Positions 49,911 through 55,498 of a DNA stretch of 64,000 nucleotides are shown piece by piece (position 1 is the stretch's first letter; each line of letters starts with the position of its first letter). Source of the stretch: Longimicrobiales bacterium (GTDB lineage: Bacteria > Gemmatimonadota > Gemmatimonadetes > Longimicrobiales > Gaopeijiaceae). Where the stretch lies: the NCBI GenBank assembly GCA_965116905.1, contig OZ220732.1, forward strand, positions 1,248,001 through 1,312,000, given 5' to 3'. The notes under the pieces are model-generated. The model saw only the letters and a program-made list of their open reading frames with translations. It had not been told where the DNA came from and searched no databases. The position numbers and the translations under genes are program-made.

Positions 49911-49995
49911 GGAGGGATGGCTGAGCGGCTAAAAGCGGCGCCCTGCTAAGGCGTTGGTCCCAGTGACCACGTGGGTTCGAATCCCACTCCCTCCG
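49911..49995 (+). tRNA. tRNA-Ser (GCT)
   Basis: GCGCC-ctGCTaa-GGCGT; long variable arm; G73. Confidence 0.93.
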
Positions 49996-50122
49996 TGAAC
50001 GGCAGTGAACGGTGGGAGTGGGGTTCGAACTTGTTCGAGCCGGAGGCGGTCGCGCCGCCAGGCGCGAACGCCGGAGACGGCCGAGGACGGCGACAGCCGC
50101 CCACAGGCCCATCCCACTCCCT
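49996..50122 (+). repeat. tRNA-Ser-associated element, copy 1
   Basis: Antisense of the host tRNA 3' end (50009-50030), 80-bp core, 12-bp direct repeat of the tRNA (50111-50122). Confidence 0.85.
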
Positions 50123-50160
50123 TTCCAGGAGTGCGGCACACTCGCTCAGACGACCCCCCG

Positions 50161-50245
50161 GGAGGCGTAGTCCTAATTGGTAAGGCACCGCACTCGAAAT
50201 GCGGCGTGCGTCAAGCACTTGGGGGTTCGAGTCCCTCCGCCTCCG
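50161..50245 (+). tRNA. tRNA-Ser (CGA)
   Basis: CCGCA-ctCGAaa-TGCGG; long variable arm. Confidence 0.92.
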
Positions 50246-50263
50246 CTCAGGGAATCTTCAAAA

Positions 50264-50337
50264 CGGGGCGTGGCTCAGTCCGGTAGAGCGCTGCGTTCGG
50301 GTCGCAGAGGTCCCCGGTTCGAATCCGGGCGCCCCGA
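50264..50337 (+). tRNA. tRNA-Pro (CGG)
   Basis: CTGCG-ttCGGgt-CGCAG; C1:G72. Confidence 0.95.
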
Positions 50338-50348
50338 TTACCAACCGA

Positions 50349-50432
50349 GGACGGGTGGCCGAGTGGCTTAAGGCGCACGACTGGAAATCGTGTGGGCATC
50401 TGCCCGCGTGGGTTCGAATCCCACCCCGTCCG
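50349..50432 (+). tRNA. tRNA-Ser (GGA)
   Basis: CACGA-ctGGAaa-TCGTG; long variable arm. Confidence 0.95.
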
Positions 50433-50565
50433 TGAAGCGTCAGCGAACTGACGGGGTGGGGTTCGAACTTGTTCGAGCCGGAGGCGGCCGCGCCGCCAGG
50501 CGCGGGCGCCGGAGACTACCGAGGAGCGGCGGCAGCCGCCCGGAGGTTCATCCCACCCCGTCCGT
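50433..50565 (+). repeat. tRNA-Ser-associated element, copy 2
   Basis: Antisense of the host tRNA 3' end (50447-50468), 81-bp core, 16-bp direct repeat of the tRNA (50550-50565). Confidence 0.85.
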
Positions 50566-50576
50566 TGAGCTTCGAC

Positions 50577-51656
50577 ATGACCCCCCAAATCGTTCGCTTC
50601 GCTCCGTTGCTCCTGGGGAACTTGCTGGGTTGGAACAGTGGCGATCCACTAACCCGTCCCGTCATCCCCGGACCTGTTTCCGTAGAGCTCCAGCGTGACA
50701 CGTTGCTGTTGGAGATCGGGGTCATTGCGGGAGACCAGAACCAGGTTTTCGGCAACATCCGTGACGTCGACGTGGATGGGGATGGGAACATCCTGATTCT
50801 TGACGATCAGGACTTCAGTTTGTCCTGGTTTGGACCGGATGGGCGCTTTCGCGGCAGAACCGGACGTGACGGTGGCGGCCCCGGCGAGTTTCGAGCCCCC
50901 GCGGGTTTGGCCGTTAGTCCAGCGGGTCAGATTCACGTTTTGGATGCAGCCTCCCGAAAGGTCGTAGAGTTCGCACTGGGCGAGGAAGGCCTGGAGTTCG
51001 TTCGCAGCTTTCAGGCGCCAGTCCAAGGCAGCGACATGTGCCTTATCGACGGTCGCCTCGTTGTGCTGGGCCAGGCGTCGGATGGCGCACCCAAGGTCTA
51101 CATCCTGTCAGAGGAGGGCGAGGTGATTCGGTCGTTTGGACCAGGCTTTCCGCGCCAGCTACCTCCTCGTGGCCTGGAGAGATTCACAGCTTTTTTTGCC
51201 TCCAGTAATGGACGGGGCTATGTCCACTGCGCAGGAGGGGATGTCCTCGCGGTTGCCAGCGAGCGCCTGGGGATCGTGCGCTGGTTTTCTACACAGGGCG
51301 ACTTCATTCGTGAGGTAACGATCAACGGATTCAGCCCCGTCACGTGGACGCCAAGTCCCGGCGGTGGCCTGTCCATGGGAGTCGACCCGGCAACTGGCGT
51401 TGCCAACACGCTCTCGCACTTGTCAGGTGGAGGACCTGGACAGATCGTCGCCACGATACACACAGCATCAATGGAGGATATGGAGGGGCGTCTCGATATC
51501 TACGTACTCGACCTGGAGGCGGGCGAACAGTCGTCTCCGATCCCATCGGAGGCAGTTGCTTCAGCATTTGCGCACCACCGGCTCTACAGTCTCGTTCGCG
51601 ATCCCTATCCCAAGGTCCTGGTTCAGACAATTCCACAATGGTTGCGGCGACATTGA
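50577..51656 (+). CDS. 6-bladed beta-propeller (NHL-like) exported protein
   Basis: FGNIRDVDVDGDGNILILD, GRDGGGPGEF. Confidence 0.75.
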   Translation: MTPQIVRFAPLLLGNLLGWNSGDPLTRPVIPGPVSVELQRDTLLLEIGVIAGDQNQVFGNIRDVDVDGDGNILILDDQDFSLSWFGPDGRFRGRTGRDGGGPGEFRAPAGLAVSPAGQIHVLDAASRKVVEFALGEEGLEFVRSFQAPVQGSDMCLIDGRLVVLGQASDGAPKVYILSEEGEVIRSFGPGFPRQLPPRGLERFTAFFASSNGRGYVHCAGGDVLAVASERLGIVRWFSTQGDFIREVTINGFSPVTWTPSPGGGLSMGVDPATGVANTLSHLSGGGPGQIVATIHTASMEDMEGRLDIYVLDLEAGEQSSPIPSEAVASAFAHHRLYSLVRDPYPKVLVQTIPQWLRRH

Positions 51657-51717
51657 CACGTAGCGTGAGTCAGACCAGGCTGCCTTGGCTCGCCCTGGAG
51701 CGTGCAATACGACCGAA

Positions 51718-52836
51718 TCAACGTGAGGCGAAACTCAGGCCGGAGACGTCGTACCAGTCGATCCCACGCCGCGGGACGCCGCTCGGGTCGTCATCCGTCA
51801 ACGGACGGTCTACAAGTACGACCAGGCTGGAGCCACGCCGATCGAACGCAACCATGCTGTGGCGTACACGCACAGTACCCGCATAGGCCTGTGCCTCATA
51901 GACATCGATGTAGGAGAATGCATCCCGGTCCCGGGTAGTCGCCACCCAAAAGCGCCCGTGGTCGTCAACTGTGTGCCCGGACATTCTGGACCACGGCACG
52001 ACCGTGTTTCGGAACTCGGCCAAATCGGCTCTCGAAGGCTCCACGGCCCCGCCGGTCATGGCCTTTACCCCCTGAACGTACGTGGCCACATCGCGCTCGC
52101 CGGGGTAGTTCTCGGTGTAGGTGGGTGAGTCAACGACCGCCGAAGGGAGCCTGTCGTCCCGGTTCGCAAACCACACGGTCTTTTGTCCCTGGCAGGTGAC
52201 GAAGACCAACCCTCCGCCGGGAATCGGATGGCCAATTCCGAGGGTCGTGGCGTCGGGTGTCACCCCGTCGCTGCATTGGACTAGTTCCGGCGAAAAAAAG
52301 CGCTCCCAGACGAATCGCCCACTGGCGATTTCCACTTCGACCTGATGGCGCCTGCCAGTCTGCCGGTTGTAATGGGCACCCGCCACGGCCGATGATAGTG
52401 GCGTGACCGGGATGAGGTCGGGGATCGGTGACGAGGACACCACGGTAGTAGGCCTGGTGCTCGAGGTCTGGAAGACCGTCACACGATTCAATCGGAGGTC
52501 GAACGCCGCAAGCGTTCCTCCGGGACCGGGTCCCAGTAGGAGAGACCCCCGAAACTCTCCAGGACCCTCCCCTCGTCGTCCAAACCTCCAAAGCCTGTCC
52601 TGTGGGTTGGTACAGTAGACTTGGACGTTGTAGCCATCGACCACACAGGCAACGGAGTCGCTGGCTAGCGCGATTCCCCGCGACGGGCTATAGGGAGCCC
52701 GGGATTCGGCAAACGGCTCCGGAGATAGCACGAACTCCTGCGCCGATCGAGCATTCGGCCCGGCGCAGGAGGCTGTGCCGATGAACAGAACCACCGCTGT
52801 GACGCACGGCACGAGCCTTTGCCACATGAGCGCCAC
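51718..52836 (-). CDS. 6-bladed beta-propeller lipoprotein
   Basis: Lipobox TASC, FGRRGEGPGEF, DDHGRFWVAT. Confidence 0.75.
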   Translation of the reverse strand: MALMWQRLVPCVTAVVLFIGTASCAGPNARSAQEFVLSPEPFAESRAPYSPSRGIALASDSVACVVDGYNVQVYCTNPQDRLWRFGRRGEGPGEFRGSLLLGPGPGGTLAAFDLRLNRVTVFQTSSTRPTTVVSSSPIPDLIPVTPLSSAVAGAHYNRQTGRRHQVEVEIASGRFVWERFFSPELVQCSDGVTPDATTLGIGHPIPGGGLVFVTCQGQKTVWFANRDDRLPSAVVDSPTYTENYPGERDVATYVQGVKAMTGGAVEPSRADLAEFRNTVVPWSRMSGHTVDDHGRFWVATTRDRDAFSYIDVYEAQAYAGTVRVRHSMVAFDRRGSSLVVLVDRPLTDDDPSGVPRRGIDWYDVSGLSFASR

Positions 52837-54137
52837 TACCCCCCGCCCACTCGCCTCACCACCACCGTCTGCATCCCCAGCTCATCCGTCTCCAGCATCG
52901 CCATCAGTCCCCCCGGACCAAGGGCCATCGGCATGGGCGTTCCCGGGGGATAGCTGCCCAGGTAGCGGCCGTCAGGGGTCAGTACATCGATCGGACCGTC
53001 GCTGAAGACGTCCTCGCCACGCCGCTGCACCCAGATCCGTCCGTCCCACGTGGTGCGCAGATCCAGGACCACCGGGACCTCGTCGGCCACCGGGACCGCT
53101 TCGAGCTGGGCCAGGGTCGACAACCGGACCCCTTCGCGCATCCTCTCGTCCATGTCCAGCGATCCCACCATGATCTCGCCCGTAGTGGCGTTCTGGATTA
53201 TGCGATTCCCCTGCCCCCTGGCCTCGAATCCCGCGATCGCCTCTTCGACCCGCCGTTCGAACTCGGCCTCCACGATCCGGTCGGTCACGGGGACGGGGTG
53301 AAGGGGGCGCGAGAGGATGCGGACGAGGGTGCCATCCGCGTCGAGGATCTTGATCGCGTACGCCGACGAGTCCGAAAACGCCAGGCCCCCTTCCGGGAGG
53401 GTGCCGACGATCAGGGGTGGACCGAAGGTGCGCGGCGGCGGCGTGACACCACCCATCGGGATTTCGCGCCCGGCGATACGGAGCGTGAGTTCGCCGACGG
53501 GCGGCAGGCTCCAGGCCTGGAAAACCGTCTCGAGGGCCACTTCGTCGCCATCCAGGGCAGCGCGCAGGATACGGCGCTTTCCGGGAGGGTCCCTTTCGTC
53601 CTCGGGGATCATCTCCTCGATCCGTGCCAGCCCGACTCCCGTGAGGACAACGCCATCGCGACCACCGTGGATGCGGTCCGCGACCGCCAGCAGGTCATTC
53701 CCCACCCGCACGCCCCGGTCGAAGCTGCCGTCGCTGTTGTAGATCTGGAACGCGCGGTGCCGCGGGACATCGCCCACAACGATGCGCCCGTCCTCCATGA
53801 CCGCCAGCCACCTGGGGAAATCGAACTCGCCGGGACCGTCGCCGGAGCGTCCGATCGTCCGCACTAAGCTGCCCTCGCGGTCAACGACCACCACCGTCGA
53901 TGCGTCGGAGTCCAGCAGGTACAGGTTGCCGGCGCGATCGAAGTCGGCATCCTGGATCCTTCCGAACTGCTCCCAGGGCTCACCGCCCATGCCGCCTGCC
54001 CGGAACACCTCCTCGAAACCGGGGTCCAGCCGGCGGTCCTCGGCGGGCAGCTCGATCAGCTCCTGGGCGGCGACAGTGGGGACGCTCGCGAGACCTGTAA
54101 GGCACAACGCGGCACCGGTGATCAGCGACCTGTTCAT
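52836..54137 (-). CDS. 6-bladed beta-propeller exported protein
   Basis: Signal peptide [32 protein letters not shown]. Confidence 0.8.
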
Positions 54138-54307
54138 TCGTTCCTCCCGTTCATGCCCATTGCGACTCCGGTCGATGCTCTCGGCGTTGTCTCGCTCCCG
54201 CCCCCGCGGAAACTGCCCGATTCGAGTTGACGTAAGGGTATGGAGAGCGTGGTGTATACCGCCATTGTCACCTGCTGCCGGTCTTGCTTGTTGAGACGGA
54301 GTCCCGC

Positions 54308-55498
54308 ATGCGCCAATCCTCGTTCCGGTGGGCGCTGCCGCTCACGATGCCTTTTCTCGCCGCCGCTTGTGCCGGGGACGACGCACCCACCGCCGACTAT
54401 GTCATCAACCACGATGGCGTCATCCCTGTCATCAACCACGACCCTCCTCCCGCGGCTCGGCTCGACCTGGTGGTTTCGATCGGACCGAAGACCCTGACGG
54501 ACACGGGATCACCAGACGAGTTCGGCCGCGTGAGCAGCGTTGCGCTGGGGCCGAACGAGGTGGTCTTCGTAGCCGATGACCTTAACCATGAGGTGAAAGT
54601 GTTCGGGCTCGACGGTGCCCACCTCCGGACCTTCGGCCGGGAAGGCGAGGGACCGGGAGAGTTCCAGACCCTCAATTCCCTGGTTTGGTCGGGCGACCGG
54701 GTACTGACCTTCGACCCCGACCAGGGTCGCATCGGCGAGTGGTCGCTGGAGGGCGAGTGGTTGGGGCAGCGGAGGACGCGGGCCGGCGTCACTGGCCCAC
54801 CCGACCTGGTCCGTCTGTACTCTGTCGGCCCGGACGAAGTGTTCCGGGATGCAGTGAGTGATCAGCGTTATGAGCGGCACTTGATCGGCCTGAGCAGCCG
54901 CGGCGATACGGGCGACACGCTGGCATGGCTGCGTGCGCCGCCGAGCGGCCGTCAGGCCTACATCGAGTGCGAATACGAGGATCGAATCGGCTTCTTCGAG
55001 GTCCCATTCGCCACGCGATTCCTGCAGCATCCGGGGCCGGGCGGCGTGCGGTACTCGGCACTCAGTAGCGCCTACCGGATCTTCGTCACGCGGAGCGACG
55101 GCGCGGAGGTTCTCATGGTGATCGAGCGCCCGCTGCCGGCCGAATCGTTCAGTACCGCCGAGTGGCGGGCGGCGAACGCCGAGTACTACGAGTGGCGCGA
55201 GACCCGCAGCGACGCGTCGTGCGACCCGCGGGAACCGCCGCGGCCGGATGCGAGACCGTTCATCGAGGACCTCTTCGTCGCTCCGGACGGCAAGCTGTGG
55301 GTCGAAGCCGTGCGGGCGGCGGGCAACCGCTGGGAAGTGTTCGACACCGAGGGCAGGTTGATTGCCAGCGTCCCGGCTCCCCCGCGCCGCACCGAACACG
55401 TCGTTCCCGCGTTCGGTCCAGACCATCTGCTCACGATCCGCCGGGATAGCCTCGACCTCGATCATGTCGATGTCTGGCGCCTGGAACGGGGGAGTTGA
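54308..55498 (+). CDS. 6-bladed beta-propeller lipoprotein
   Basis: Lipobox [24 protein letters not shown]. Confidence 0.8.

Follow-up and report, generated by a model that had tools for sequence, protein, structure and literature searches.

TLR-like repeat units with host-matched arms behind serine tRNA genes in a Gemmatimonadota family

Results

Organization of the units in the tRNA cluster

The window, i.e., the whole stretch of 64,000 nucleotides that was analysed, harbours a cluster of 17 tRNA genes in which two serine tRNA genes are each followed by a gene-less unit of about 130 bases, with unit 1 located inside the cluster 3' of tRNA-Ser(GCT) and unit 2 located 3' of tRNA-Ser(GGA) (Table 1). 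From the tRNA outwards, each unit consists of a linker (14-15 nt), an arm that is antisense to the tail of the upstream tRNA (21-22 nt), a core (80-81 nt) and, at its far end, a copy of the tRNA end in direct orientation (direct repeat). An earlier note on this DNA had reported the same parts, and most of its measurements could be reproduced: positions 50009-50030 and 50447-50468 are the reverse complement of 49975-49996 and 50412-50433, respectively, at 20 of 22 positions each, the G-U-compatible mismatch common to both arms turned out to be a T-G wobble and affects tail position 8, the direct repeats of 12 and 16 bp lie where they had been placed, and wherever Ser(GCT) and Ser(GGA) differ, arm and repeat each match their own host tRNA. 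The cores, which had been called near-identical, are not, as they share only 86% of their positions.

Table 1. Features of the two units and of the genes around them (positions refer to the window)
Feature	Position	Strand	Remarks
tRNA-Ser(GCT), host of unit 1	49911..49995	+	CCA not encoded; tail (T-loop to discriminator) 49975-49995
Unit 1, linker	49996..50009	+	small hairpin, GNNA loop (GGCA) between GA pairs; GC/AT pair covaries in 8/37
Unit 1, antisense arm	50010..50030	+	against GCT tail, 19 Watson-Crick, 1 G-T and 1 mismatch of 21
Unit 1, core	50031..50110	+	second GTTCGA 50033-50038; main hairpin 50045-50072 (GCCA loop); hairpins with GGA triloop and GACA tetraloop
Unit 1, direct repeat of tRNA end	50111..50122	+	12 bp; ends 3 nt before discriminator
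tRNA-Ser(CGA)	50161..50245	+	different T-arm, without unit (0/30 genomes examined)
tRNA-Ser(GGA), host of unit 2	50349..50432	+	CCA not encoded; tail 50412-50432
Unit 2, linker	50433..50447	+	hairpin, GTCA loop
Unit 2, antisense arm	50448..50468	+	against GGA tail, 19 Watson-Crick, 1 G-T and 1 mismatch of 21
Unit 2, core	50469..50549	+	70/81 identical to core of unit 1
Unit 2, direct repeat of tRNA end	50550..50565	+	16 bp; from ATCC (T-loop) to discriminator plus one base, without CCA
Six-bladed beta-propeller gene (359 aa)	50577..51656	+	neighbour, outside unit; orthologue in the sister G034 lies 3' of an empty Ser(GGA) site

Compared with shuffled sequences, folding of the two units in the window reaches z-scores of -4.2 and -4.7. 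A downstream inverted match with a score of 16 is found only at Ser(GCT) and Ser(GGA) among the 51 genes called by ARAGORN in this genome, the next best score being 10, and the full core occurs just twice in the 4.2-Mb genome. The claim that only the two tRNAs sharing a T-arm carry the unit holds for Ser(CGA), which lacks it, but has to be extended by a third tRNA gene with the same T-arm, namely Ser(TGA) (G000:C1:c3079977-3080062), which lies outside the window and is followed by an internally deleted unit that retains the linker, the last hairpin and a 16-bp repeat. Downstream of this deleted unit resides a gene for an AbiEii-like AAA ATPase that recurs at the same locus in relatives.

Open reading frame calls that span the units (e.g., 50469-51656, starting from TTG) were rejected because the orthologue in G034 starts past the site. 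The beta-propeller gene behind unit 2 opens a run of genes of this type (50577-55498) 3' of the tRNA cluster, and the gene content at this cluster-end site differs strongly among relatives, which marks it as an insertion hot spot. No terminator-like site could be found 3' of unit 1 or unit 2, so that a role as terminator is unsupported.

Distribution, empty sites and arrays

In a BLAST search of 61 genomes, matches with E<1e-5 were obtained in 23 of the 36 genomes of the same genus and in none of the 24 from other families, and when 151 Gemmatimonadota genomes were searched with a covariance model, strong hits came from the same family only. The first-unit junctions between tRNA and arm, arm and core, and core and repeat are each bridged by exact contigs of a public sequencing run, which may represent the source sample. 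Together with the recurrence in the genus, these contigs rule out an assembly artefact, which the earlier note had taken into consideration.

The individual loci were compared in 37 genomes, the choice of which was partly guided by a hit and was supplemented with ten that lacked a strong one; as in all counts for the family given here and below, the genomes are related and the counts hence not independent. In the loci of the 37 genomes, an automatic call, which overlooked one full TGA unit found otherwise, detected the core at 17 of 28 Ser(GCT), 17 of 30 Ser(GGA) and 19 of 30 Ser(TGA) sites, and neither 3' of Ser(CGA) (0/30) nor 3' of other tRNA genes (0/319). Strains with empty sites, for which the earlier note had suggested to look, do exist: the Ser(GGA) site that is filled in the present genome (G000) is empty in its sister G034 ahead of the same gene, and G029 carries three units while its sister G030 has none at those tRNAs. 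In G010, G017 and G023, which are complete genomes of the same genus, none of the three tRNAs is followed by the unit, from which we can conclude that it is dispensable. The sister pair G026/G004 was distrusted, as its recA genes are 99% identical and its TGA flanks only 84%.

The number of copies per locus ranges from one to four full ones plus partial ones, with older, distal copies being decayed. Identical or near-identical copies occur in tandem, two each in G001, G026 and G035 and up to four in G180. Many empty sites retain nothing but a linker hairpin stub (7 of 28 at GCT). Core copies away from tRNAs, which the earlier note would have held against a tRNA-bound element, do occur to a limited extent: among four such copies in relatives, one is located 2.5 kb downstream of an empty site, two are truncated, and the fourth, a displaced partial unit, sits at an integrase-island end, directly 3' of a tRNA-end remnant and beside a gene for a P4-like tyrosine integrase.

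Several further observations were made at these loci. Another contig of G030 (L192) bears a second Ser(GGA) with a linker stub alone, followed by Ser(CGA), and represents a duplicated or rearranged piece of the cluster. The Ser(GGA) gene of G007 (L041) has an A-C mismatch in its acceptor stem. Agreement with the distant G016 (L043) extends over the variable arm and the tail as well as the unit and the DNA 3' of it, which suggests recombination inside the tRNA gene or a chimeric assembly. A different, MITE-like small element with terminal inverted repeats was seen within the tRNA cluster of G019 and G015, where it lies in the gap between tRNA-Pro and Ser(GGA) (L023) and in that between Ser(CGA) and tRNA-Pro (L019). 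Loci of related genera, namely L220, L221, L222 and L232 of genus g19 as well as L224, show this layout and other cores at the same tRNAs. The + strand loops of g19 are TTC, TTCG and CTAC, as if GNA-type hairpins sat on the opposite strand.

Host matching of arm and repeat

Of 45 arms found, two with a one-base shift were excluded, leaving 43 for the comparison with the host tRNA. At tail position 14, the arm forms a Watson-Crick pair with its host in 39 of these, and at position 17 in 40, with two G-T pairs and a single mismatch in the remainder (42/43 paired); the repeat matches its host at the two positions in 41/41 and 40/41 cases, respectively. Position 14 of Ser(TGA) varies jointly with the 5' strand of the same tRNA, and both arm and repeat vary along with it (18/18 arms; four changes on the recA tree). 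In a phylogenetic test, all three independent pairs were concordant (p 0.25), one of them being doubtful, so that tracking of the host by the arm within a locus is to be regarded as suggestive. An exception is the GGA unit of G014, which bears a GCT-type arm, and at tail positions 12, 13 and 20 the arm is unpaired in 20, 33 and 20 of the 45 arms.

Where arm and tail disagree (65 cells at positions 7-17), the repeat equals the tail in 63 cells but never the arm, and of the 27 full-length repeats not one is followed by CCA; it follows that the repeat was copied from the gene end and neither from the arm nor from the mature tRNA. The repeat reaches the discriminator (15 bp) in 27 of 43 units, and the shorter ones are found mostly at GCT, where 9 of 14 stop 2-4 nt before it. 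Given that the repeat is a plain copy of the gene end and that mismatches in the arm persist, a target-matching arm that is rewritten or templated, as contemplated in the earlier note, requires no special machinery, and none became apparent; the underlying idea of a non-autonomous, tRNA-targeting mini-element is the best supported one, with host tracking seen over 43 units.

The cores behave differently from the arms in that their tree does not sort by tRNA. Core identity averages 84% within a genome across tRNAs (27 pairs) versus 78% for the same tRNA across genomes (238 pairs), values that are uncorrected for genome kinship, and this pattern fits with a putative copying of cores between loci.

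Fold and loop chemistry

In an alignment of 37 units, 96% of the cells are paired, and compensatory changes, with both partners altered, are seen in 12 of the 30 pairs. The loops would be unusual for an RNA, being either G-N-A triloops or G-N-N-A tetraloops. In 32 of 36 cases the third position of the linker tetraloop is a pyrimidine, and GGA loops vary to GAA, GCA and GTA, unlike CsrA sites. Hairpins with GNA or GNNA loops are strongly biased towards one strand, as 39 units contain 209 of them on the + strand and 17 on the - strand compared to 61 +/- 7 in shuffles (two window units: 10, 0 and 3.0 +/- 1.7, respectively), and 39 random pieces of the genome show no such excess. It has been reported that GCGNAGC and GCGNNAGC mini-hairpins are exceptionally stable in DNA and far less so in RNA, and that GNRA and UNCG loops prevail in RNA hairpins (passages of PMC13037366).

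With DNA parameters, the arm of the + strand pairs with the direct repeat and the 3' part of the arm with the second GTTCGA, while the core is looped out. The predicted fold of this strand would hence represent a duplex copy of the tRNA T-loop and 3' end, which agrees with the proposal in the earlier note that the core is an insert splitting a second T-loop copy. With RNA parameters, a swapped fold, in which the arm pairs with the tail and the 5' strand of the tRNA with the repeat, is predicted to lie 15.6 and 13.5 kcal/mol below tRNA and unit folded apart, making an RNA switch or a misfold possible from the modelled energies. As the folded strand is also the transcribed one, the strand bias alone cannot separate DNA from RNA.

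Comparison with the TLRs of Escherichia coli

The layout of the units is already in the literature, and tRNA-linked repeats of this design exist in other phyla, a possibility that the earlier note had raised. Passages of PMC8144298 describe 22 TLRs at ten loci of E. coli, defined by an 18-19 bp copy of the end of the upstream RNA gene, comprising the tyrT/tyrV repeats (RtT, RF00391) as well as lys, arg and rrA/rrB/rrF members. According to the same passages, they have been known since 1978, and the only known function concerns the binding of Hfq and CsrA by three rRNA-linked ones (RrA/B/F), which are transcribed as part of the operon, a defined RNA arising from them by processing.

For the comparison, 12 TLR segments from the tyr, lys, arg and rrnB loci were used. 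Like the units, the tRNA-linked TLRs are located directly 3' of the tRNA, contain a repeat of the tRNA end that starts with (A)ATCC in the T-loop as well as a host-matched antisense stretch (8-22 nt in the copies examined), and TLRs occur in one to several tandem copies (one to five by the TLR criterion). The linker motif GA[AG]C-GN(N)A-G[CT]GA is present in 8 of the 12 segments compared to 30 of 39 Gemmatimonadota units, and GNA/GNNA hairpins are again concentrated on the + strand (57, versus 18 on the - strand and 11.8 +/- 3.5 in shuffles). The rRNA-linked TLR, which yields a CsrA-binding RNA (passages of PMC8144298), has the hairpins and lacks both antisense arm and T-loop. Compared to the E. 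coli TLRs, the arm of the Gemmatimonadota units is longer (21 nt, covering the whole acceptor strand) and only 14-15 nt away from the tRNA, the units are restricted to three serine tRNAs, and the repeat measures 15-16 instead of 18-19 bp, which results from the fact that CCA is not encoded (18 minus CCA).

Model RF00391 did not match the window even at E 10 (gathering threshold 45 bits), although it matched nine E. coli places as a positive control, and a covariance model of the unit did not match the E. coli TLRs (best E 0.68). Other Rfam models, applied to the window at gathering threshold and at E 10, returned tRNAs and weak, unrelated hairpin models only, so that an identity with a described Rfam family, which the earlier note had considered, was not found. 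Judged from sequence comparison, the units are of the E. coli TLR design without detectable sequence kinship. An identity with the DUF3800 RNA motifs was rejected because the unit has no Rfam match and these motifs, according to passages of PMC5737381, adjoin DUF3800 genes and not tRNA ends. Geobacter and Pelobacter multicopy sequences were likewise rejected as kin, as the literature passages on them describe no such element.

A pattern search for the layout over GTDB returned at least 120 loci. Among the matches listed, 94 have a repeat of at least 11 bp, of which 34 belong to the Gemmatimonadota family and 60 to others (Bacillota, Pseudomonadota, Verrucomicrobiota, other bacterial phyla and archaea). 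In these listed loci from other phyla, the arm is mostly short, with 4.5 of 10 outer positions paired versus 8.1 in the Gemmatimonadota family, and GNA/GNNA loops are again enriched (31 cores tested). Genomes of the Lachnospiraceae type (L062, L067, L070, L087, L089, L091, L105, L116) carry tandem units of this design, 70-75 bp in length, 3' of tRNA-Lys and upstream of a MatE gene.

Search for a mobilizing enzyme or carrier

The co-occurring HUH/RAYT transposase or reverse transcriptase genes that the earlier note had proposed to look for were not found: Y1 transposases (PF01797) are absent from all 38 genomes searched, i.e., the present one and 37 relatives, and reverse transcriptases (PF00078) from the present genome. 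The latter encodes 12 tyrosine recombinases, all of which are located elsewhere than the units, and no unit is found at any of these 12 loci. Matches to GIY-YIG nucleases in the same genome lie within frames of 617 and 371 aa, and another 15 loci, at which the GIY-YIG frames are short or odd, show neither a tRNA nor a unit within about 1 kb. Small GIY-YIG-like proteins of about 100-120 aa that end in GYxVW were observed in several members of the genus, unlinked to tRNAs (L314-L318, L320, L323).

The genes beside the units represent varied cargo (55 and 107 frames), and the 107 frames at the layout loci of other phyla include no common gene. A search of viral contigs with the architecture pattern gave no hits, and core patterns retrieved one metagenome and seven viral loci, none of which scored as a unit (best 15 bits). 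No match was obtained in phages, and a single chance match of 40% in plasmids. Among contigs of public sequencing data, whose coverage is thin and whose gaps carry no weight as evidence, neither a circle nor a precisely excised form was present, while alleles with a linker stub were. None of 18 raw reads falls on the units.

Discussion

A variant of the TLR kind with DNA-like behaviour

The units described here are real, structurally conserved and dynamic in copy number, and they are a variant of the TLR kind rather than a new kind of element. The passages of PMC8144298 on which we draw mention neither an antisense arm nor a DNA role of TLRs; older papers (Egan and Landy 1978, Rudd 1999, Bosl and Kersten 1991) may describe the arm. 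Three features of the Gemmatimonadota units point to behaviour at the DNA level, namely the DNA-type loops on one strand, a repeat that is copied from the gene, and cores that are common to the loci in combination with host-matched arms.

An intact tRNA gene followed by a displaced 3' fragment is the signature of insertion by a tyrosine integrase (Islander; passages of PMC4383910). The islands inserted in this way resemble the units in the intact tRNA, in the same-orientation displaced fragment that begins in the T-loop/T-stem region, and in their tandem stacking. They differ from them by an integrase gene, a length in the kilobase range and a 250-bp attP with arm sites, whereas the units comprise 130 bp of GC-rich hairpins without a gene and, unlike the islands, an inverted copy of the target. 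The ends of tRNA-Ser genes in relatives also bear integrase-island scars and an integrase island. AT-rich palindromic scars with repeats of the GTCCCAC type, as are typical of the ends of such islands, were observed 3' of tRNA-Ser or of the unit repeat at several loci (L010, L021, L043, L195, L198, L177, L218, L229).

A folded single strand is recombined at the attC sites of integrons and at attP(+) of phage CTX, where the middle is looped out and IntI and XerCD act on the targets attI and dif, respectively. Like these sites, the units have two inverted site copies about 80-90 nt apart that are predicted to pair, on one strand and in tandem arrays; they differ from them in the target, which is a tRNA end instead of attI or dif, and in that no cassette gene is tied to the unit.

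From our point of view, the reading that deserves preference, albeit tentatively, is that the unit is a non-autonomous element, the single strand of which folds so as to restore the T-loop and 3' site of the tRNA and is inserted by a borrowed tyrosine integrase. It is based on the signature of tRNA plus displaced 3' fragment, on the island scars at the same tRNA ends and on the gene-less strand that is predicted to rebuild the target; the strand-specific DNA-type loops, the filled and empty sites of sister genomes, the tandem copies and the 12 tyrosine recombinases of the present genome also favour it. The + strand would fold such that arm and direct repeat form a duplex copy of the target, in analogy to attC and CTX attP, and the borrowed integrase would insert this folded strand at the T-loop/3' site. 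Recombination would keep the tRNA whole, and the old tRNA end, once displaced, would become the direct repeat. The arm would track its host since it moves along with the tail copy and has to pair with it, with possible help from template switching across the short loop. Gene conversion could homogenize the cores among the three loci, and the arrays may expand and collapse via repeats of 15-30 bp, thereby leaving linker stubs behind. The stubs at many empty sites point to loss from an ancestral insertion, fresh gains being unproven. Against a mobile element speaks that there is no linked enzyme, no carrier and no circle.

Alternative explanations

One could also imagine that the unit is an RNA trailer or switch kept by the host, which is co-transcribed and released as a small RNA similar to RtT or RrB and whose arm, with the pre-tRNA and the repeat as alternative pairing partners, would tune 3' processing. 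The rRNA-linked TLRs of E. coli are indeed transcribed, processed and bound by Hfq and CsrA (passages of PMC8144298), unit 1 lies within the 17-tRNA cluster without a terminator-like site after it, the swapped RNA fold is favoured by the above-mentioned energies, and the stems covary. In a related strain, the boundary between tRNA and unit is crossed by contigs of an RNA run, from which neither transcription nor ends can be read. The RNA reading, which the earlier note had placed beside the mini-element, is thus thermodynamically possible; however, the loops are GNA triloops and GNYA tetraloops of the DNA type and not GNRA or UNCG, the variable GGA loops do not resemble CsrA sites, in 20 of 45 arms the pair corresponding to the first acceptor pair of a tRNA mimic is disrupted, and the unit is dispensable, being absent at three tRNAs in G010, G017 and G023. 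Taken together, we regard this explanation as rather unlikely.

A domesticated decoy or buffer, in which an old and immobile insert offers a repeat that absorbs the integration of islands or DNA hairpins that serve a highly transcribed locus, appears improbable. It would account for the att-like scar that is located 3' of the unit repeat rather than of the tRNA in G016, G029, G024, G009, G123 and G130, and for the 9 of 14 GCT repeats ending 2-4 nt before the discriminator, near the point at which damage of the displaced fragment by island integration has been reported (passages of PMC4383910). A scar behind the repeat is, however, equally compatible with a later insertion of the unit, scars also occur directly on unit-free tRNAs, islands also enter ahead of the unit and displace it (G012, G034), and neither tandem expansion nor frequent loss would be expected of a protective site.

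REP/REPIN sequences with RAYT (Y1) and the hairpin repeats of Ssn GIY-YIG nucleases are likewise short, non-autonomous, GC-rich hairpin DNA, and both HUH/Y1 and Ssn-type nucleases read DNA mini-hairpins. Spread by such a single-strand nuclease (HUH/Y1 RAYT type or small Ssn-type GIY-YIG) that cuts at hairpins would fit with the DNA-type mini-hairpins of the units. Nevertheless, the units occupy only two or three loci per genome with a strict tRNA target and are not dispersed as REPs are, PF01797 is absent from this genome and the 37 relatives, and the 15 small GIY-YIG loci lie away from tRNAs and units. For the Pfam families searched, spread of this kind is therefore largely refuted; a divergent nuclease is possible, and the explanation as a whole is very unlikely.

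Little can be said for a neutral by-product of replication slippage and template switching at tRNA ends, without function and without a mobilizer. Arrays that grow and collapse and the many decayed distal copies are what it would predict, but genomes with a mean recA identity of 84% have retained a core of 80 nt that shows compensatory changes and a constant loop chemistry, and the loop motif recurs in E. coli, so that this explanation is hard to hold given the covariation and has to be considered highly improbable. The most improbable explanation is a retro-element, with a reverse transcriptase for which the arm would be the tRNA primer-binding site or which would generate the repeat by copying the tRNA end. 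The complementarity of the arm to the last 21 encoded tRNA bases does resemble that of a primer-binding site; however, priming there would copy away from the core, the repeats are without CCA (0/27), no arm starts with the complement of the post-discriminator CCA, and PF00078 is missing from the present genome, to which the search was confined.

Implications for TLR-type repeats

Returning to the folded strand and its borrowed integrase, this reading could be extended to TLRs in general, which would then be minimal mobile elements consisting of folded single strands that occur across domains: inverted and direct target copies would pair and thereby rebuild a tRNA attachment site, hijacked tRNA-targeting integrases or a host enzyme would perform the insertion, and a change of the short arm would suffice for retargeting while the hairpin core is kept. 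We consider this extension doubtful at present.

For more than 45 years, no function has been known for the TLRs of E. coli, the study of which has treated them as RNAs. The Gemmatimonadota family, in which three host tRNAs are distinguished by two positions and in which sister sites with and without the unit as well as tandem arrays are found, represents a clean comparative case. The value of the present analysis lies in the comparative evidence for TLR-type repeats behaving as DNA, which is still a hypothesis as long as neither an enzyme nor an insertion has been seen. If the cross-domain reading were true, repeats that have been unexplained since 1978 would be accounted for, and a sequence-programmable substrate for single-strand integration would be defined.
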